The position numbers and the translations under genes are program-made. This document shows positions 57-31,766 of a stretch of 32,361 bases of DNA, in pieces (within the stretch, counting starts at the first letter, position 1; each line of letters starts with the position of its first letter). The notes beneath the pieces are model-generated. The model did not search any database. It worked only from the letters and a program-made list of their open reading frames with translations, and was not told the DNA's origin. Source of the DNA: Ignavibacteriota bacterium. GTDB taxonomy: Bacteria; Bacteroidota; Ignavibacteria; UBA10030. The DNA is taken from assembly GCA_003162695.1 (NCBI GenBank), contig PMML01000054.1, forward strand, positions 1 through 32,361, read 5' to 3'.

Positions 57-602
57 ATCTTCAGTAATTTCGAGAAAACCATAGAACTCAATGGCAGATT
101 AAGCCGCAAAGTGCTCGTGTTAAACCATAATTACGAACCTTTGAGTATCTGTAATGTCCGAAAAGCGGTAATTTTACTTTTTTTAGGCAAAGCTGAATTG
201 ATAGCAGCGTGTGATGGGAAAAGTCTCCATTCTGTTTCTGCAACGATGCCGTATCCGAGCATTGTCCGTCTTTGCGTCTACATACGCATTCCTTATAAAA
301 AGATCGTGCTTTCACGAAAGAATATATTACGGCGAGACGGACATCGATGTCAATATTGCGGGAAAACGGATATCTCACTGACCGTAGATCATGTCATTCC
401 CAAGGCTCATGGCGGCATTGAGTCATGGGAAAATCTCGTTGCAGCGTGTGTGCAGTGTAATAATAGAAAAGGAGATCGTGCACCGGGTGAAGCTCAAATG
501 ACGCTCCTCCGAAAACCGATCCGTCCAAACCATGTTATGTTTATCCGGCATTTTATCGGAACGGTAGACGATCATTGGAAGCCTTATCTTTTTATGAATT
601 GA
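57..602 (+). CDS. HNH endonuclease family protein (McrA-like, VLVLNxxYEP subfamily); start uncertain (ATC 57 vs GTG 111)
   Basis: VLVLNHNYEPL N-terminal motif, RRDGHRCQYCG, TVDHVIPKAHGG, WENLVAACVQCNNRKGD (two CxxC plus the HNH core). The frame is open from 48 to 602. Confidence 0.9.
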   Translation: MFSNFEKTIELNGRLSRKVLVLNHNYEPLSICNVRKAVILLFLGKAELIAACDGKSLHSVSATMPYPSIVRLCVYIRIPYKKIVLSRKNILRRDGHRCQYCGKTDISLTVDHVIPKAHGGIESWENLVAACVQCNNRKGDRAPGEAQMTLLRKPIRPNHVMFIRHFIGTVDDHWKPYLFMN

Positions 603-22593: not shown

Positions 22594-24666
22594 ATGATCA
22601 AAGAATTTAAACGCATACTTGTTACGGCCGCTTTGCCTTATGCAAACGGCTATCTTCACCTGGGGCATCTTGCCGGCGCCTATCTTCCGGCCGATATATA
22701 CGCCCGCTATCAGCGTTTAAAGAAACGCGAAGTTCTTTTTCTTTGCGGTTCTGACGAGCATGGGGTTGCTATTACCGTCTCTGCGGAAAAAGAAAAGATA
22801 ACCCCTCAAGCCATTATCGACCGCTATCATCCGGCGAATAAATCGGTTTTTGAAGCATTTGAAATGAGCTTCGATAATTATTCTCGCACATCCCTGCCTT
22901 TGCATTATAAAACAACGACTGAATTCTTTACGGAATTCCATAAGAACGGCATTGTTCTGGAAAAAAAGGAACAGCAGCTGTTTTGCGAAAAAGATTCTCT
23001 GTTCTTAGCCGATCGGTATGTCGAAGGAACATGCCCGAATTGTAAATCAACGCAGGCACGCGGAGATCAATGTGAAAATTGCGGGACGTGGATCAATCAG
23101 GTCGATCTGATCGATCCAAAGTGCAAACTCTGCGGAAGCACGCCGGTTATCCGCGAAACGCTGCACTGGTATTTTCCGCTTGGAAAGTATCAAAAGAGGC
23201 TACAGGAATATATTAAAAATGCAGATGAGCGGGATGGGTGGAAAGAAAATGTTCTGCGTTATTGCGAGGGCTGGTTCAAGGATGGATTGCAGGACCGTGC
23301 AGTGACACGCGATCTTACCTGGGGAGTTCCTGTTCCGGTGAAAGGATTTGAACACAAAGTCATTTATGTCTGGTTCGATGCTGTGCTCGGGTATATTTCA
23401 TCCGGCAGGGAGTGGGCAGCCGGAAAAGGAACCCCTGACGCATGGAAAAAATATTGGCTCGATCCGGAAACAAAATATGTCCCTTTTATCGGCAAAGACA
23501 ATATCGTATTCCATTGCATCGTTTTTCCTGCTATGCTCATGGCATGGAATGATAGCGGAAAAGAACAATATATTCTGCCGGCAAATGTTCCCGCCAACGA
23601 ATTTTTGAATTTCGAAGGACAAAAATTTTCAAAGAGCCGCGGGTGGGGAATCGACGTTCAAGATTTCCTGAAGTTTTTCCCCGCTGATACGATTCGTTAT
23701 GCACTTGCCGTCAATTTACCGGAAAAAAGCGACAGTGATTTCTATTTGAAAGACTTTCAGGCGCGCGTCAACAATGAACTTGCAGATATCGTTGGAAATT
23801 TTATCAATCGTACCATTGCATTTACAGAAAAGAACTTCGAAGGCAAAGTTCCGAGTCCCGGTACATTGAATTTACTCGATGCTGAAATGATCTCTAAAAT
23901 CAAGAAAATACCCGGGATGGTCGGACTATCATACGAACAGTACAGATTCCGCGATGGTTTGATGGAAACAATGAACCTTGCTCGATCTGCCAATAAATAT
24001 TTCAACGACAGCGAGCCTTGGAAGACCAAAAAGTCAAATCCTGAACAATGTGCAGCTACGCTGTACGTTTCCCTGCAGGTTGTCCGTACGCTGGCAATAT
24101 TGCTGGCACCTGTCATTCCTTTTACGGCTGATAAAATTTGGAAACTTCTCAAGATGGATTCGGTGTTGTATCAGGACGGCTGGGATTCTGCGGCAGATAT
24201 TCTGCTTGAACCCGGCCATATTTTAGATAGACCTGAAATATTGATTCAAAAGATTGAGGATAAGCGTATCGAAGAAATTATCAAATTTTTAGAAGATGGC
24301 AGTGAGAAAACGCCGAAACCTGAAGCCGCGCCGATCAAGCCGGTTATAACGATCGACGATTTTTCAAAACTTGATTTACGCATTGCAAAAGTCCTTCAAG
24401 CAGAGAAAGTTCCTAAATCGGAAAAACTTCTGAAACTTCGGGTCGAGCTTGGATCCGAACAACGGCAGATTCTTGCCGGTATCGCAAAAAAATATGAGCC
24501 GGAGGATTTGATCGGAAAATCGGTTGTTATCGTTGCAAATCTGCAGCCTGCTAAACTTATGGGGCAGGAATCGCAGGGGATGATCTTGGCGGCAAGCGAT
24601 GCGAACGGAGACATGAAATTGATCGAACCGAACGGTGAAATGCCTGCCGGTTCGATTGTCAAATAA
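22594..24666 (+). CDS. metG: Methionine--tRNA ligase with C-terminal tRNA-binding domain
   Basis: ALPYANGYLHLGH, Zn knuckles, YVWFDA, GKDNIVFH, KFSKS, C-terminal VANLQPAKLMGQESQGM. Confidence 0.98.
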   Translation: MIKEFKRILVTAALPYANGYLHLGHLAGAYLPADIYARYQRLKKREVLFLCGSDEHGVAITVSAEKEKITPQAIIDRYHPANKSVFEAFEMSFDNYSRTSLPLHYKTTTEFFTEFHKNGIVLEKKEQQLFCEKDSLFLADRYVEGTCPNCKSTQARGDQCENCGTWINQVDLIDPKCKLCGSTPVIRETLHWYFPLGKYQKRLQEYIKNADERDGWKENVLRYCEGWFKDGLQDRAVTRDLTWGVPVPVKGFEHKVIYVWFDAVLGYISSGREWAAGKGTPDAWKKYWLDPETKYVPFIGKDNIVFHCIVFPAMLMAWNDSGKEQYILPANVPANEFLNFEGQKFSKSRGWGIDVQDFLKFFPADTIRYALAVNLPEKSDSDFYLKDFQARVNNELADIVGNFINRTIAFTEKNFEGKVPSPGTLNLLDAEMISKIKKIPGMVGLSYEQYRFRDGLMETMNLARSANKYFNDSEPWKTKKSNPEQCAATLYVSLQVVRTLAILLAPVIPFTADKIWKLLKMDSVLYQDGWDSAADILLEPGHILDRPEILIQKIEDKRIEEIIKFLEDGSEKTPKPEAAPIKPVITIDDFSKLDLRIAKVLQAEKVPKSEKLLKLRVELGSEQRQILAGIAKKYEPEDLIGKSVVIVANLQPAKLMGQESQGMILAASDANGDMKLIEPNGEMPAGSIVK

Positions 24667-24676
24667 TCAGGACAGC

Positions 24677-25519
24677 GTGAAAAAAATAAAAAGTATAACG
24701 GATTTTGTTAAAATTGAGCATACTCTTTTTTCTTTACCGCTGATTTTCGCCGGCGTATTTTTAGCTTCACCAAAGCCTCCTTCGCTGAAACTGATCATGC
24801 TCATTCTTGCCGCTGCTCTTGGAGCCCGGACGACGGCTCTGGCTCTGAATCGAATTATCGACCGGCATATCGATAAACGCAATCCGCGAACGACCGACAG
24901 GGAGTTGCCGAGCGGAAGGATGCCTCTTGGCGGGGCATTTATTATTCTTATCGCTGGCTTTGCGTTGTATGAATTCAGCGCAAAATTAATATCTCCTTTT
25001 TGTCTTGCTCTCTCTCCGATTCCGCTCGCAATTTTTCTTATCTACCCATATATGAAACGCTTTACCTCGTTCGCGCATTTTGGCGTAGGATTCGGATTAT
25101 CGATGGCGCCGCTCGGCGGATGGTTTGCAGTCAAAAATACAGCCGAAGGAATGCTCCCCGGATTGCTGCTATCGCTTTTTATGGTTTTCTGGGCCACCGG
25201 TTTTGATGTCATCTATTCAACGCTTGATGAGGCATTTGATCGGGGAGAGAATCTTTATTCCTTTACTTCACGGTACGGACGAAAACGTGCATTAAAAATT
25301 TCAGCGTGCCTGCATGTTTTATCTTTTGCCGTACTGGTAGGTCTTTTTACGCTGCAAATCCGCGCTTTAGCGGCTCTGCCGCTGCTCATTGTTTCCGGAT
25401 ACCTTTTATATCTGGAGCACAGGAAAGCCGAAGATGTTGAGCTGGCGTTCTTTAGAATAAATGCTGTCATCGGTTTTGCGGTTCTTGCAATGGTGCTGGC
25501 AGGAGTGTATTTTCCATGA
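24677..25519 (+). CDS. ubiA: UbiA-like polyprenyltransferase of the futalosine pathway (MqnP-type)
   Basis: KIEHTLFSLP, NRIIDRHIDKRNPRT.RELPSG, YPYMKRFT, GFDVIY..D..FD; multiple TM helices. GTG 24677 follows AGGA. Confidence 0.92.
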   Translation: MKKIKSITDFVKIEHTLFSLPLIFAGVFLASPKPPSLKLIMLILAAALGARTTALALNRIIDRHIDKRNPRTTDRELPSGRMPLGGAFIILIAGFALYEFSAKLISPFCLALSPIPLAIFLIYPYMKRFTSFAHFGVGFGLSMAPLGGWFAVKNTAEGMLPGLLLSLFMVFWATGFDVIYSTLDEAFDRGENLYSFTSRYGRKRALKISACLHVLSFAVLVGLFTLQIRALAALPLLIVSGYLLYLEHRKAEDVELAFFRINAVIGFAVLAMVLAGVYFP

Positions 25520-26067
25520 GGATTATCGTCGGAGTGACCGGGTCATCCGGGGCGATTTTTGCTAAGGAATTTTTAAGGCAATGTGAAGCGGAAAAATTTC
25601 TTATTATAAGCAAATGGGGAAAAGTGGTCGTGAAGGAAGAACTCGGCATTTCTGAAAAAGAATTCGCTTCTTTTGCAAAGAGGCAGTTTTCAGATGATGA
25701 CTTGACCGCTCCTTCTGCATCAGGATCCAACAGATTCGATGCTATGGTGATTCTTCCTTGTTCAACATCTACAGTAGGAAAAATAGCATCCGGAATAGGG
25801 GATACACTTATCACGCGCACTGCTCAGGTTGCATTAAAAGAGCGGTATCGTCTGATTCTCTGCATACGGGAAACTCCGCTTTCTACCATTACGCTTGAAC
25901 AATGCACAAAAATTTCGGCTTGCGGTGGGATGATTATGCCGATTTCTCCTCCTCTTTACTTTGTTCCGAATTCCGTCCAGGAATATATTGATGCTTATAT
26001 TGCCAAATTGCTCGGTGTTCTCGGCCTGCGTGAATCAAAAGGGTGGCGTTCCGGAGATTTGGAATAA
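25516..26067 (+). CDS. ubiX: Flavin prenyltransferase UbiX
   Basis: GVTGSSG, ASGS, PCSTST, LITRTAQVALKE, RETPL; ATGA overlap with ubiA. Confidence 0.93.
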   Translation: MRIIVGVTGSSGAIFAKEFLRQCEAEKFLIISKWGKVVVKEELGISEKEFASFAKRQFSDDDLTAPSASGSNRFDAMVILPCSTSTVGKIASGIGDTLITRTAQVALKERYRLILCIRETPLSTITLEQCTKISACGGMIMPISPPLYFVPNSVQEYIDAYIAKLLGVLGLRESKGWRSGDLE

Positions 26068-27887
26068 TGCAGACGTTTCCGGCGCTTGGCGAATTTGTTC
26101 GGTATCTGGAGTCTATCGGTGAGCTCAGAAGAATCAAGAAGGAGGTTGATCCTTTTCTTGAAATAACCGAAATTGCCGCACGATCTCTCCGTGAAGGCAG
26201 ACAGGCTCTTCTTTTTGAAAATGTAAAAGGTTCACCGTTTCCCTGTGCTGTCAATGTTTATGCTTCGGAACGCCGGATTGAAATCGCTCTGGGCAGGCAT
26301 CCGGAACAGATCGGCGAAGAACTCATAAATTTTGCAGAAAGATTGTTTCCACCCAAACCTTCGGAGCTATGGAAGAATCGATCGATGCTTCTTCGCATTC
26401 TTCATTCTCAATCGCGAAAAGTTGCATCAGGATTTTCCCAGTCCATTGTTCTGTCTCCCGATCTCAATGTGCTGCCGCTTCAAACCTGCTGGCCCGGCGA
26501 TGGCGGTCGTTTTATTACGCAGGGGCAGGTCGTTACGTACGATCCGGTCGATGGAAAGAGGAATATTGGAATGTATCGTATGCATGTGTATGATGCCGTT
26601 ACAACAGGCATGCATTGGCAAATTCAAAAAGGCGGTGGATTCCATTATCATCATGCGGAACAAATGAATCGGGCACTTCCGGTTTGCGTTGCTCTCGGAA
26701 CAGATCCGGCATTGCTGCTCGCAACGATCGCGGCTTTACCGGAAGGTATCGACGAGGCAATGTTTGCTGCATTTTTAAGAAATAAAAGAATTCCATTTGC
26801 ACGCGGGAAAAGCATCGGCGTCGATGTCCCGTCTCGGGCTGAGTTCATCCTGGAAGGAAATGTGTACCCCGGCGAGCGCAGAGAAGAAGGACCGTTCGGA
26901 GATCATTTAGGCCATTATTCCCACGCATCGCTGTTTCCGGTTTTTCATTTAAAAGCTCTTACACATCGTCATCATGCAGTATACCCTGCAGCGGTTGTCG
27001 GCGTTCCGCCTCTGGAAGATAAATTTCTGGGGGATGCGACACAGCAAATTCTTTCTCCATTGATCAGGCTTCTTCACTCGGAAATTCGGTCGATGTGGGC
27101 GTATTACGAAGCGGGTTTTCATAATCTGCTCGTTGTTTCGACGGAAGCACGCTATAAAAAAGAAGCAATGAAAACCGCACTTGGATTATTGGGGACAGGT
27201 CAATTATCGTTGACCAAATGCATGGTCCTGGTTTCGGAAGAGGTCGATCCGAAAAACTGGTCTTCCGTTCTGAAGGAAATTCATGAAAATTTCGATCCGC
27301 ATTTCGACTTTATGCTGCTTCCGAATGTTCCGCTTGATACTCTCGACTTTACAAGTTTTAATTTGGAACTGGGAAGTAAAATGATTTTAGATGCGACGAG
27401 AAAACAGAGCAGGAAGCACGAACAAAAGAAGCGAGATGAGCGGATTACCGGCCTGAAGCGCTCGCTTATCTCCAAGGTTATTTCTTCCGATAAAAGAATC
27501 ATAGACGCAGAATCGTGGGAAGAAACTCTGCTTGTTGTCAAAATCCGTTCCAGCGGTTCAGCATCGAGCGGATCACAATTAAACGGAAGACCAGTTCTGG
27601 AGAAATTGCTTCGGAACCGGGAATGTCAGATTTTCAGCATCATTGCGGTTGTGAGCGAAGATGTCGATGTGAGAGATCGAGTGAACTCGATTTGGGGAAT
27701 ATTCACGCGATTTGACTGTCAGAGGGATGTGATTTTTACGGATCAAAAAATGTCGGGAATTTCTCCGCTCTATTCGGGTGTTATGGGAATAGATGCAACG
27801 TGGAAAAAAGGATATCCGGACCCTCTTGTTATGGATCCCGATGTCGTGTGCAGAGTCCATTCACAATGGGAAGAATTTTGGAAGTAG
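26067..27887 (+). CDS. ubiD: UbiD-family prFMN-dependent decarboxylase (menaquinone biosynthesis, long form)
   Basis: VDPFLEITEI, WPGDGGRFIT, NIGMYR, MHWQIQK, EGPFGDH.GHYS, DTLD, GIDATWK. TAATG coupling gives the start at 26067. Confidence 0.93.
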   Translation: MQTFPALGEFVRYLESIGELRRIKKEVDPFLEITEIAARSLREGRQALLFENVKGSPFPCAVNVYASERRIEIALGRHPEQIGEELINFAERLFPPKPSELWKNRSMLLRILHSQSRKVASGFSQSIVLSPDLNVLPLQTCWPGDGGRFITQGQVVTYDPVDGKRNIGMYRMHVYDAVTTGMHWQIQKGGGFHYHHAEQMNRALPVCVALGTDPALLLATIAALPEGIDEAMFAAFLRNKRIPFARGKSIGVDVPSRAEFILEGNVYPGERREEGPFGDHLGHYSHASLFPVFHLKALTHRHHAVYPAAVVGVPPLEDKFLGDATQQILSPLIRLLHSEIRSMWAYYEAGFHNLLVVSTEARYKKEAMKTALGLLGTGQLSLTKCMVLVSEEVDPKNWSSVLKEIHENFDPHFDFMLLPNVPLDTLDFTSFNLELGSKMILDATRKQSRKHEQKKRDERITGLKRSLISKVISSDKRIIDAESWEETLLVVKIRSSGSASSGSQLNGRPVLEKLLRNRECQIFSIIAVVSEDVDVRDRVNSIWGIFTRFDCQRDVIFTDQKMSGISPLYSGVMGIDATWKKGYPDPLVMDPDVVCRVHSQWEEFWK

Positions 27888-27889
27888 TT

Positions 27890-29752
27890 ATGGAGATACA
27901 TTTCCGGGATATAAATCTTGAGCCCGTCTGGCAAAAAGTCCGAAAGGGGAACCGATTATCCGCTGAAGACGGATTAAGGCTCCTCGCAACCAACGATATC
28001 ATTTCGCTCGGCAAGATGGCGCACTTTGTTCAAAAACAGAGAAGCGGTGATGCGGTTTACTTTGTCTTGAATCAAAAAATCGAACCGACGAACGTTTGTG
28101 TCTTATCGTGTAAGTTTTGCGACTTTGCCGTAAAACAAGGTGACGCGAAATCTTATGAAATGACGATCGAAGCAATTCTCGGAAAGCTTACCTCCGACAT
28201 TCAGGAAGTGCATATTACGGGCGGTTTGCATCCGGATTGGGAGTGGGAATACTATCTCGATATGCTGCGGCGTATTCGTGAAAAATATCCGCATGCGGAT
28301 ATCAAAGCGTTCACGGCGGTCGAAATCGATTTTTTCCATAGGAAATTCAAAATATCGATTGAAGATGTTTTGCGGCAATTAAAAGAAGCCGGACTTCGAA
28401 CGATGCCGGGAGGCGGAGCGGAAGTGTTTTCAGAGCGTGTGCGAAAGGAACTCTTCCCTCAGAAGATAGGAGCCGAGCAATGGCTGGCCATTCATCGAAC
28501 CTCTCATAGACTGGGGATCCCGACAAATGCAACGATGCTATACGGTCATATCGAAACGATGGAAGAACGGGTACATCATCTTCTCAAACTCCGGGAATTG
28601 CAGGATGAGACGCATGGATTTCTTTCTTTTATCCCATTAGCTTTTCAGCCGGGGGAAACCGGTATTAAGCCTTCTGATCAATATACATCGGCTATCGACG
28701 ACCTTAGGGTGATTGCCGCCTCGCGGCTGATACTCGATAACATTCCGCATATCAAGGCCTATTGGGTTATGCTGACGGAGGATGTTGCATCCATAGCTTT
28801 AAATTTCGGGGCAGATGATATGGATGGAACGGTGGGAGGTGAGCGCATCGCGCATGATGCAGGTGCGATAAGTCCGTCAGTGCTGGCAAAAGAACAAATC
28901 GTTAAAATTATTCGTGATGCAGGAAAGATCCCGGTGGAACGGGATATCTATTATAATCCGCTTCGTCTATACGGCGAACATGTAGTAGGAAAAATTCCGT
29001 ATTTGAATTCCGTGCCATTCTATGCAAATATCGAACAGCGGAAATTCAAGATTTTGCCGGTTTCTCCCCGTCGAATGGGTGATCTATCTTCAAGGGGGTA
29101 TCTGGATGCCGGTCTTTTTTCTTTGGTCGACTATCTGCAGCAGCAGACGAAACTGGAAGCTCTTGATTATTGCATTGCAACGAGAGATCAAGTGAAAAGT
29201 GTAATGCTCTTCACAAATCATGACTGGCAAAGCCTCCAGGGCAGGACCATTGGTATTGTCGACGACACGGCAACTTCCGTTCAACTCTTGCGGGTTTTGT
29301 TGAAAAATAAATACGGAGTACATGCACATTTCCAGCGCATGAATTCCGGTGTGAACGAGTATCGGTCGTTCGATGCTGTACTGTTGATCGGAGATGAGGC
29401 TCTCCGTTGCCAAAAGCACGGTCTTGCTGGTTTTGAGTTGATTTATGATCTTGCATCGGAATGGTACGAATGGAAAAAACTTCCATTTGTATTTGCAATA
29501 TGGGCGGTACAAAAAGCGGTGCAGCCGGACATGAAAGCGGAATTGATCGAAATTCTGCAAGCCTCTCTCAAAAAAGCGGAACAAAATTATACTGAGGCAG
29601 GCGCTCTGCATGCGAAAAGCATCGGCCTCACAGGGCAGGAATGCGATGAATATCTGGAAGGATTTAACTTCCGTATCGGCGCTCGTGAGCGTGCAGCTAT
29701 TGCAGAATTCGAAAAACTTTTAATAGATTTGGAAGTAATGGAAAGAGTCTAG
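27890..29752 (+). CDS. mqnE: Fused aminofutalosine synthase MqnE (aa ~1-360) and chorismate dehydratase MqnA (aa ~365-620)
   Basis: N-terminal part: PTNVCVLSCKFC (CxxxCxxC), KAFTAVEI, MPGGGAEVF, NATMLYGHIE, HIKAYW, FGADDMDGT. C-terminal part: GKIPYLNSVP, VKSVML, ATSVQL, LLIGDEAL, DLASEW...LPFVFAIW. Confidence 0.92.
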   Translation: MEIHFRDINLEPVWQKVRKGNRLSAEDGLRLLATNDIISLGKMAHFVQKQRSGDAVYFVLNQKIEPTNVCVLSCKFCDFAVKQGDAKSYEMTIEAILGKLTSDIQEVHITGGLHPDWEWEYYLDMLRRIREKYPHADIKAFTAVEIDFFHRKFKISIEDVLRQLKEAGLRTMPGGGAEVFSERVRKELFPQKIGAEQWLAIHRTSHRLGIPTNATMLYGHIETMEERVHHLLKLRELQDETHGFLSFIPLAFQPGETGIKPSDQYTSAIDDLRVIAASRLILDNIPHIKAYWVMLTEDVASIALNFGADDMDGTVGGERIAHDAGAISPSVLAKEQIVKIIRDAGKIPVERDIYYNPLRLYGEHVVGKIPYLNSVPFYANIEQRKFKILPVSPRRMGDLSSRGYLDAGLFSLVDYLQQQTKLEALDYCIATRDQVKSVMLFTNHDWQSLQGRTIGIVDDTATSVQLLRVLLKNKYGVHAHFQRMNSGVNEYRSFDAVLLIGDEALRCQKHGLAGFELIYDLASEWYEWKKLPFVFAIWAVQKAVQPDMKAELIEILQASLKKAEQNYTEAGALHAKSIGLTGQECDEYLEGFNFRIGARERAAIAEFEKLLIDLEVMERV

Positions 29753-29760
29753 CAGGATAT

Positions 29761-30558
29761 ATGTCGGAACATATTCTTAAACGATTCGAAGAGCTTGTCG
29801 AGGCGGGGAACAGACTTGCCCCTCAGGGGGGATTTGATTTTTCCGGTTATAATGCGCGTCTGCAAAATACATATTTGGAATGGCGCAAAGCGTGCCTTGA
29901 AATTTTAGAACTCTCCGGCCCGATCGGCATTCCCTATAAAAATAAAATTCTCAGCGATAAAAATGGAGGAGTTTTTTTCCAAATTTCCGCACTCTTGATT
30001 CTGCATTCGATACATGAATTGTATGCTAAACTCAAAGCTTCTCCGGAAATGGTATCTTCAGATGGAAAAGAATTACAGGAAAACCAGCCGTTGACGCAAA
30101 CCGTCTCGGATGGAGTTCGCGTGTTGAAGCCGCCGGTTAAAGCCGAAAAGGTACAAACCAGCCCTGCTGCTGCGCGTACTGTCTATATCATCGGGGAAAA
30201 AAACAGCCCGCTCTATGTACAACTGGCGCATTTTTTATTGGAGATTGGAATTGAAGAGGTGCTGATAGAAAGACAGCATGGAACGATGATTTCGTTTAAC
30301 ACATTTCAGGAACGGGCCGATATACGATTTGCATATTTTGTTCTGAATGAAGACGATCTTGGGTATGTGATGTTTGAAATAGGTCATTTGGTCGGCAAGC
30401 TGGGATCAGGGCATGTTTGTGTATTATGCAAATCAGAAGTGAATTTTCCCGGCAATATCCCCGGTATCAGTGTTAAACGAATTGTTGTTAAGCTGGAAGA
30501 AGCCGGATTCGAATTGATGAAAGAATTAAAAGCAGCAGGATATACCGTCAATATTTAA
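29761..30558 (+). CDS. Hypothetical protein: helical N-terminal domain plus degenerate CAP12/Pycsar-type TIR-like domain
   Basis: C-terminal half shows VYII, AHFL..IGIE.VLI, FAYFVL..DD.G, VMFEIG.LVGKLG...VCVL, P.NIPG and ELKAAGY. AGGA RBS. Confidence 0.7.
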   Translation: MSEHILKRFEELVEAGNRLAPQGGFDFSGYNARLQNTYLEWRKACLEILELSGPIGIPYKNKILSDKNGGVFFQISALLILHSIHELYAKLKASPEMVSSDGKELQENQPLTQTVSDGVRVLKPPVKAEKVQTSPAAARTVYIIGEKNSPLYVQLAHFLLEIGIEEVLIERQHGTMISFNTFQERADIRFAYFVLNEDDLGYVMFEIGHLVGKLGSGHVCVLCKSEVNFPGNIPGISVKRIVVKLEEAGFELMKELKAAGYTVNI

Positions 30559-30671
30559 CGCAGAATAAAATACAAAAAAAGTATGAATAAAAATACCTGT
30601 TTCCTCTCTCTCTCGATGGAAAAGAAAGAACGTTTATTTTACATCCCAATATATTCTCTTGCGGTGGATGC

Positions 30672-31766
30672 ATGACAGTTGCAGAGATAGAAAAAAATAT
30701 TCGAAACGGCATTCGGATGACGAAAGAAGAGGGGGTTTTCCTGCTCCGCAATGCAGAAATTCTCGATCTTGGCGCTTTGGCAAACGAGATTCGTTTTAAA
30801 AATAACCCAAAACCGTATGTGACGTATGTACTGGATACAAATCCGAATTATACGAATGTTTGCACTGTCGATTGTATCTTCTGTGCGTTTTATCGTCATC
30901 CGGGTGAAGAAGGAGTCTACACTCGTACGGTGGATTATATGATGGAAAAATTCAAAGAAGCTGCTCGTAATGGAACGACGACTGTCCTTCTCCAAGGGGG
31001 TGTAAATCCCGATTTGCCGTTCGAGTATTATCTGGAGCTTGTTGAGCGGACGGTAAAAGAGGTTCCGCAGATTTTTCCGCATTTCTTTTCGACTTCTGAA
31101 ATTCTTATCATGTCGAAAGTGTCCGGATTCAGCGTTCATACCGTTCTGGAAAAATTATGGGAAAAGGGATTGCGATCCCTGCCGGGCGGGGGAGCGGAAA
31201 TACTCTCCGATAGAGTAAAAAAGAAAATCAGCGGCAAAAAAGGGACTTCTGACGATTGGATTCGCGTTATGAGAACTGCGCATCGGATCGGGTATAAAAC
31301 GACCGCTACGATGATGTACGGGCATCTGGAAGCAGATGAGGATATCATAACGCATCTGGATGCTGTACGCGCCTTACAGGACGAGACAGGCGGCTTTACG
31401 GCCTTTATTCCGTGGTCGTTCAAGCCCGGTAATACGCCGCTGGAAAAGATTATACCGCATTATGCATCGCCACTGCGATACCTTCAAATGATTGCCTTGT
31501 CGCGCATCTATCTGGATAACTTCCGGCATATACAAGGATCGTGGTTTTCAGAAGGGAAAAAAATAGGCCAGATATCGCTTCACTTTGGAGCAGATGATTT
31601 CGGCGGGGTTTTAACGGAAGAGAATGTTCATGCCTCTGCAAAGTTTGTGAACAAGACGAGTGCCGAGGGATGTAAGATGCTTATCCGAGAGTCCGGTTTT
31701 CTGCCTGCCCAGCGTAATACCCTTTATGATATTCTCAACATCGATGATGTGCGGAAAGCAGTGTAA
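30672..31766 (+). CDS. mqnC: Cyclic dehypoxanthinyl futalosine synthase (radical SAM)
   Basis: NPNYTNVCTVDCIFCAFYR, LLQGG.NP, SLPGGGAEIL, TATMMYGH, GFTAFIPW, HIQGSW, GADDFG...EENV. Confidence 0.93.
   Translation: MTVAEIEKNIRNGIRMTKEEGVFLLRNAEILDLGALANEIRFKNNPKPYVTYVLDTNPNYTNVCTVDCIFCAFYRHPGEEGVYTRTVDYMMEKFKEAARNGTTTVLLQGGVNPDLPFEYYLELVERTVKEVPQIFPHFFSTSEILIMSKVSGFSVHTVLEKLWEKGLRSLPGGGAEILSDRVKKKISGKKGTSDDWIRVMRTAHRIGYKTTATMMYGHLEADEDIITHLDAVRALQDETGGFTAFIPWSFKPGNTPLEKIIPHYASPLRYLQMIALSRIYLDNFRHIQGSWFSEGKKIGQISLHFGADDFGGVLTEENVHASAKFVNKTSAEGCKMLIRESGFLPAQRNTLYDILNIDDVRKAV

Follow-up and report, generated by a model that had tools for sequence, protein, structure and literature searches.

Work on bacterial TIR proteins has dealt almost entirely with their part as mobile effectors of immunity, which consume NAD+ or produce signals. 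In animals, non-catalytic TIR adaptor domains use the same fold as a binding or assembly module without NAD+ consumption (also in the abstract of 10.64898/2026.04.20.719644). The described systems closest to the gene analyzed here are Cap12/TIR-STING, PycTIR, and PDC-S35, a PADLOC candidate for single-gene phage defence in which a variable N-terminal domain is joined to a PF10137 TIR domain. For SfSTING, a passage of Morehouse et al. (2022, PMC9402430) gives E84 as the catalytic residue, S10, R78 and N80 as the residues that hold the phosphodiester and the ribose, and F6, W33, F37 and L47 as those that stack the nicotinamide. Our literature search found no paper naming PDC-S35 and no paper joining futalosine with a TIR domain, and the passage found of one PF10137 paper (10.64898/2025.12.03.692087), a methods list, held nothing like this gene. 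Here we analyzed a TIR-like gene that lies among the menaquinone (mqn) genes of an Ignavibacteriota bacterium, on a stretch of DNA of 32,361 nucleotides that we call the window.

The TIR-like gene, its neighbours and its domains

The gene, its parts and its neighbours in the window were located as follows.

22594..27887, + strand: metG, then ubiA-, ubiX- and ubiD-family genes (Pfam)
27800..29752, + strand: mqnE-mqnA fusion, the upstream neighbour (TIGR03700, 469.7 bits against a cut-off of 434.55; PF02621 at aa 396-640)
29753..29760, + strand: 8-nt spacer CAGGATAT with AGGA inside, from the mqnE-mqnA stop (29752) to the ATG of the TIR-like gene
29761..30558, + strand: TIR-like gene, 265 aa (ORF with ATG start; PF10137 above cut-off; PDC-S35 E 7e-19)
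29761..30048, + strand: N-terminal four-helix bundle, aa 1-96
30049..30165, + strand: disordered Pro/Ala/Gln-rich linker, aa 97-135 (pLDDT <50)
30118..30141, + strand: short linker motif RVLKPPVK, aa 120-127, conserved in the family alignment
30166..30555, + strand: C-terminal degenerate TIR-like (flavodoxin-like) domain, aa 136-265
30376..30378, + strand: E206 codon GAA in the FE[IL]G motif, counterpart of the Cap12/SfSTING catalytic Glu
30672..31766, + strand: mqnC, the downstream neighbour (TIGR03699, 445.8 bits against a cut-off of 428.1)

These coordinates confirmed the initial annotation, which had described a 265-aa ORF starting 8 nt past the mqnE-mqnA stop, with an AGGA in the spacer, ahead of mqnC. 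The distance from the TIR-like gene to mqnC was 113 nt, and the upstream fusion was 650 aa long. In the window and in nearly all of the relatives listed, mqnE and mqnA formed a single ORF (~620-700 aa). The listed GTG start of the fusion overlaps the ubiD-family ORF by 88 nt, suggesting that the true start may be further downstream. The order metG-ubiA-ubiX-ubiD was repeated in most of the loci that we fetched from relatives. Pfam scans of 29 window ORFs found no cyclase, STING or cNMP-binding family, in agreement with the earlier statement that no such partner is visible, and no known defence-system family near the TIR-like gene. A 163-aa HNH endonuclease ORF (PF01844, window 111-602) stood isolated ~29 kb upstream in an otherwise housekeeping window. 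A promoter and terminator scan returned the same counts as shuffled sequence; its sole terminator-like site between 29752 and 30672 was at 29819, within the TIR ORF, in a scan that was uninformative overall.

We also found contigs from peat RNA libraries that matched this region. With no differences from the window, one contig bridged mqnA and the TIR-like gene (29300-29922) and another bridged the TIR-like gene and mqnC (29996-31200), while contigs from two further runs bridged the TIR-like gene and mqnC with 11-12 differences. RNA-library contigs can hold DNA and contigs cannot prove a single transcript, so that these matches are consistent with expression and co-transcription rather than proof of either.

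The C-terminal part of the protein belongs to the TIR family, as had been proposed, by its match to the Pfam profile PF10137 (CAP12-PCTIR_TIR; E 1.5e-6, 28.6 bits against a gathering cut-off of 24.7, aa 142-240), which homologues of the window protein likewise carry as a precomputed match. The best match in any profile library was to the PADLOC PDC-S35 models (E 7e-19 to 3e-9, aa ~95-264), the top one (E 7e-19) covering only aa 127-264 against model positions 107-258 of 264. The match to PADLOC PycTIR was weak (E 0.0024), the NCBIfam Cap12 equivalogs reached 16 bits against a cut-off of 450, and the protein matched neither PF01048 nor TIGR03664. A PDB sequence search with the window protein gave no match at E<=10.

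We then considered an AlphaFold2 model built on a 31-sequence alignment. The model had helices at residues 3-19, 32-51, 57-64 and 74-93, which form a predicted four-helix N-domain, followed by residues 97-135 with pLDDT <50 and an alpha/beta domain at 140-258. This prediction agrees with the N-terminal helical domain and linker that had been described from the sequence, and the N-domain modelled alone reached a pLDDT of 91. In the structural comparison of the C-domain that had been suggested as a check, the top Foldseek matches were Cap12/TIR-STING structures, and the fold could not be separated as TIR from receiver or B12-binding domains. Because the fold alone does not make this distinction, the TIR call rests on the sequence profiles. 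For the N-domain the fold search gave generic matches, and a comparison of aa 1-96 with the protein atlas gave scores of 0.86 to unnamed clusters only and no lead.

The degeneracy of the TIR-like domain was read from an alignment with canonical relatives that bear the same N-domain. These relatives have the motifs VFIVHG, G.TLIEK.E and LLTPDD, a 21-column loop ending in RARQN, and the motifs FELGYF and PSD. Where they have VFIVHG in strand 1, the window protein has VYIIGE, so that IGE stands in place of the usual HG. The G.TLIEK.E motif was absent, a gap of 21 columns replaced the RARQN loop with Y202 occupying the column of its N, and FPGNIPG was found where the canonical relatives have E.PSD. 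The FE[IL]G motif was retained, including E206 (GAA at 30376-30378), which was invariant in 31/31 aligned family members, and [FY]E[ILMV]G was present in all 57 open frames of clades A and B. The missing HG, the deleted loop and the kept Glu of the initial annotation were therefore all seen in this alignment.

We mapped the SfSTING residues onto the window protein through a canonical relative, P0144, which reached Cap12 chains in the PDB sequence search whereas the window protein did not. In the alignment with SfSTING (Cap12; 7un8), the LELG of P0144 fell on FEFG, and its RARQN on the residues immediately preceding this motif. The mapping consists of two chained alignments (window protein-P0144-7un8) and not of a solved structure. 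On it, and with respect to the residues given in the passage of Morehouse et al. cited above, the Glu is kept (E206) and an aromatic residue, Y142, stands at the place of F6, while the counterparts of R78 and N80 are lost and so is the HG near S10. Loss of the R78 and N80 counterparts together with the HG would be expected to abolish NAD+ binding, and judged from the sequence the window protein is probably not NAD+-cleaving.

Distribution and conservation in two families

We surveyed 277 genomes of the order for the TIR-like gene at E<=1e-10. The gene was present in 80 of the 85 other genomes of the window's family; a second family had it in 51 of 55, and it was found in none of the 136 genomes of seven other families of the order at the same threshold. 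Where listed, each genome had a single full-length copy. Two same-family misses, G013 and G014, are probably assembly gaps since their mqnC lies at a contig end. The gene lay between mqnE-mqnA and mqnC in 18/20 fetched loci of clade A (a count that takes in G030 of the second family), usually after metG-ubiA-ubiX-ubiD, and in all 38 fetched loci of clade B and all four of clade C. The survey for retention at this site thus returned 60 of 62 fetched loci. The sporadic occurrence that the initial annotation had counted against a pathway role was not seen in these two families (80/85 and 51/55 genomes, always at a single housekeeping locus). The present distribution of the gene is near-universal and vertical in two families.

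When 1.84 billion representative proteins were searched, 865 relatives were identified, only 10 of them at E<=1e-30. Some distant relatives were ~260 aa long and had the same N-terminal motifs joined to a canonical TIR domain (PF10137 E ~1e-35, PDC-S35 E ~1e-70). These canonical relatives occurred at no fewer than 598 loci scattered over many phyla, and mqn or ubi genes were found within 5 kb of the canonical TIR gene at none of the 80 loci kept. A MetRS-like gene lay within 5 kb at two of the 80 (L158:2846-4498, L115:5601-6041), probably by chance; the TIR-like gene itself directly follows metG in mqn-less relatives. In G029, which belongs to a TIR-less family, two type II toxin-antitoxin pairs were found between mqnE-mqnA and mqnC (L171:3342-4693), one a PIN toxin with a DUF6290-like partner and the other a RelB-like antitoxin with a ParE toxin, indicating that mobile modules can settle at this site. 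The TIR-like genes have both their place of insertion and their derived losses in common, which suggests that a mobile TIR gene was probably captured once and has been inherited vertically since.

Across the family the TIR-like protein was 47-56% identical, as compared to 50-65% for MqnA and 62-68% for UbiA, and 66 columns were invariant across 18 genera-level sequences. Clade B was ~35% identical to the window protein. When the three clades were compared, conservation was highest in the N-domain, with 20 of 96 columns invariant and with the cross-clade invariant loops P-x-GG-x-x-F-SGYNA and D-x-NG-x-F/Y-F. In the model of the window protein, the conserved loops P21-GGFDFSGYNA-32 and D66-x-NGGxFFQ-74 are predicted to sit together at one pole of the bundle. 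The linker differed between clades in length and composition, being either Pro/Ala-rich or EAR-rich, and the whole protein ranged from 265 aa here up to 478 aa in clade C, where the linkers are EAR-rich. In the linker motif RVLKPPVK, L122, P124, P125 and K127 were invariant in 31 family members, and the motif was kept in mqn-less species as well; it was not conserved in clade B.

In the TIR-like domain the family-invariant set comprised Y142, R171, G174, D199, Y202 and E206. Clade C had Ala at E206 and His at R171 and kept both the position in the operon and a strongly conserved N-domain. The joint loss of R171 and E206 in clade C suggests that the two residues belong to one site in clades A and B, and also that the function common to all clades needs no such site. 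The function shared by the three clades is thus probably non-catalytic. The strict Glu, R171 and the new invariant residues in clades A and B would fit a working enzyme as well as a scaffold.

A selected function independent of menaquinone synthesis

We found two nearly complete genomes, G012 (97% complete) and G018 (99% complete, 6 contigs), that were without MqnC, MqnE, MqnA and MqnD, and in which neither MenB nor MenD was found above cut-off. The TIR-like gene was intact in both (275 aa in G012 and 273 aa in G018) and stood directly after metG. Within the genus of G018 all 16 species had the TIR-like gene, and only eight had an intact MqnC and MqnE. Of the remaining eight species, four had a frameshifted or stop-ridden mqnC and no mqnE, and four had nothing or a faint remnant. 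Locus maps (L163-L170, L026) showed the intact TIR-like gene between mqn remnants. The four broken mqnC genes shared a break near aa 268, indicating that the inactivation is older than the split of these species.

The dN/dS of the TIR-like gene was 0.10-0.23 among the four species with a broken mqnC, and the same range, 0.10-0.23, was obtained over all 10 mqn-less pairs with dS<1. At the 66 invariant columns G012 deviated at two and G018 at four, as compared to 0-5 in other genera. In a quick tree G012 grouped with the mqn-bearing G005 (support 95) and G018 elsewhere; these placements, together with the two groups within the genus of G018, suggest at least three losses of mqn genes. Since the TIR-like gene stays intact and constrained where the mqn genes decay, it is selected for something besides menaquinone synthesis, and its selected function is therefore independent of that pathway. 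The genus that is losing its menaquinone genes serves here as a natural experiment which separates selection on the TIR-like gene from selection on its neighbours. The analysis also shows that a gene's place within the operon of a pathway can be a misleading guide to its function.

We considered E47 as an mqn-tied contact, as it is Ala in G012 and G018 and invariant in 18 others, and rejected it since seven other mqn-less species keep E47. Three further observations concern the genomes with decaying mqn genes. The genus of G018 is losing menaquinone biosynthesis, and the classical Men pathway was not found in G018, the sole species of the genus checked for it. An Amidohydro_2 (PF04909) gene adjoins mqnC and mqnD in relatives (L016:4970-5893, L030:7853-8777), and G012 and G119 retain it after mqn loss, where it may be split in two. 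A third and weaker PF02621 paralogue (~93-113 bits) besides MqnA and MqnD was present in the window's genome (G000:C66:191-886), with counterparts in G012, G013, G014 and G018; it was thus retained in genomes that lost the mqn pathway.

Alternative explanations and comparison with known systems

The initial annotation had noted that mqnB is missing from the cluster and had raised a role for the TIR-like protein in its place. The absence of mqnB was confirmed, as the MqnB profile (TIGR03664, E<=0.001) had no match anywhere in the window's genome and none of 41 sampled genomes of the order had MqnB above the TIGR03664 cut-off. Most of these 41 genomes held just two PF01048 proteins, which in the window's genome were PunA-type PNPs (G000:C99:24051-24791 and G000:C105:126-872). 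With no MqnB/MTAN-type nucleosidase recognisable in the order, the enzyme of the step between MqnE and MqnC was not recognised in this lineage. A TIR-fold N-glycosidase that replaces MqnB or MTAN at this step would agree with that gap and with where the gene sits in 60 of 62 fetched loci. N-glycosidic bonds are cleaved by TIR domains and also by the related MilB fold, which appeared at Foldseek ranks 38 and 44. However, 14 of the 16 genomes from other families in the sample were without the TIR-like gene yet had MqnC, and among those 14 a weak MqnB-type match was seen only in G039. Because genomes with MqnC and without the TIR-like gene also lacked MqnB, the co-occurrence check revealed no complementary pattern of TIR and MqnB in the 41 genomes. 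The gene was also intact and constrained in at least nine genomes without a working mqn pathway, and clade C, with Ala in place of the Glu, holds the same position. We therefore abandoned the MqnB substitution, which is very unlikely. A housekeeping N-glycosidase for adenosyl metabolites, in effect a TIR-fold analogue of MTAN that would have arisen from a defence NADase, with Y142, R171, D199, Y202 and E206 as its remodelled pocket, is an unlikely reading as well; its candidate substrates would be aminofutalosine, 5'-deoxyadenosine from radical-SAM enzymes, MTA and SAH. If true, it would explain why the gene sits between two radical-SAM genes, why these genomes lack MTAN and MqnB, and why the gene survives mqn decay.

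The degenerate motif set could also be that of a dead defence gene, a decaying passenger carried along by the operon structure, since a neutral ORF might be protected for some time by its place in a stable operon. We consider this extremely improbable: essentially all listed genomes have the ORF intact, its dN/dS is 0.10-0.23, the 66 columns are invariant across 18 genera-level sequences, and the gene outlasts deletions that remove the genes on both of its sides. The protein may still act against phages, as an abortive-infection effector of the PDC-S35 kind whose active site has been remodelled and whose gene is fixed and constitutively co-expressed with a housekeeping operon. PDC-S35 models are its best profile matches, and canonical relatives with the same N-domain score E ~1e-70 against them. 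All 57 frames of clades A and B have the Glu, a defence gene would be expected to be retained in the absence of mqn genes, and in G029 toxin-antitoxin pairs occupy the same junction. Yet nearly all genomes of two families have the gene as a single, vertically inherited copy and it was not found in seven sister families, whereas its canonical relatives are scattered. The counterparts of R78 and N80 and the S10 region, as named in the cited passage, are lost, and clade C has lost the Glu. No known defence family was found nearby by Pfam, the only nuclease-type match being the HNH ORF ~29 kb upstream, and PDC-S35 itself is only a candidate. A lineage-fixed defence gene would be unusual, not impossible, and we regard present anti-phage activity as possible, if doubtful. 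The earlier suggestion of a stand-alone defence gene at a neutral site thus stands for the likely origin, to which the scattered canonical relatives and the toxin-antitoxin pairs at the junction point, but not for the present state, in view of the near-universal vertical distribution.

We favor the reading that a former defence TIR has become a fixed core gene whose function does not depend on menaquinone synthesis and is probably other than NAD+ cleavage, and we give it a probability of roughly 0.6. The gene would have originated from a mobile stand-alone TIR of the PDC-S35/PF10137 type, a candidate abortive-infection NADase, which may have inserted at the mqnE-mqnA/mqnC junction in the ancestor of two related families and become fixed there, to be inherited vertically thereafter as a single-copy core gene. 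Its TIR-like domain would have kept the fold and the helix-C Glu and lost the contacts to the ADP-ribose half that the cited passage describes for Cap12/SfSTING, and it would have ceased to be an effector that depletes NAD+. The remodelled pocket of clades A and B (Y142, R171, D199, Y202, E206) may still bind or hydrolyse another nucleotide-like ligand, and the N-domain may be a ligand- or partner-binding module joined through a flexible spacer to the TIR-like scaffold. The general idea of a domesticated TIR, already put forward in the initial annotation, is supported by a fixed and vertical core gene in which residues mapped to NAD+ contacts are lost. It would make this a TIR-family member that is long fixed and operon-embedded, with its putative NAD+ contacts removed and an N-terminal module more conserved than the enzyme domain. 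If true, a bacterial immune TIR was taken over for another cellular role, in parallel to the adaptor TIRs of animals.

Among known systems the PDC-S35 candidates and the Cap12/PycTIR effectors are the closest. The protein and PDC-S35 share a similar length (~260 aa), and no profile matched better than those of PDC-S35 (E 7e-19, aa 127-264); some PDC-S35 proteins also have the N-bundle motifs P.GG..GYN..Q..Y..WR and D..G.YFY..SA and the C-terminal tail KELKAAGY. In contrast, canonical PDC-S35 members score E ~1e-70, some of them end to end, and have the HG, TLIEK, the RARQN loop and PSD; they are scattered over phyla with 0/80 loci near mqn genes, whereas the window's family is vertical and operon-embedded. 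With Cap12/TIR-STING (SfSTING, PDB 7un8, 9lmq) and PycTIR the protein shares the PF10137 family and the helix-C Glu in F-E-x-G. Unlike CBASS and Pycsar effectors, it is not fused to a STING, SAVED or cNMP-binding sensor, and the window holds no cyclase. Set against the Cap12/SfSTING residues named in the cited passage, it has lost the strand-1 HG, and what would correspond to R78 and N80 has been deleted or replaced. The likeness to MqnB/MTAN (PNP_UDP_1 fold) is only positional and, in that the TIR fold family contains N-glycosidases, chemical in principle; the protein has no PF01048 or TIGR03664 similarity and its presence is uncoupled from the futalosine pathway. We describe it as a lineage-fixed, remodelled TIR-like protein that matches the PF10137 profile and keeps the Glu and lacks the predicted NAD+ contacts, the sensor, the cyclase partner and the sporadic distribution of these effectors. 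As a working model for all three clades, we take from the animal TIR adaptors the idea of a TIR domain that may function without NAD+ consumption; clades A and B, unlike those adaptors, keep the Glu, and the likeness is one at the level of the fold only.
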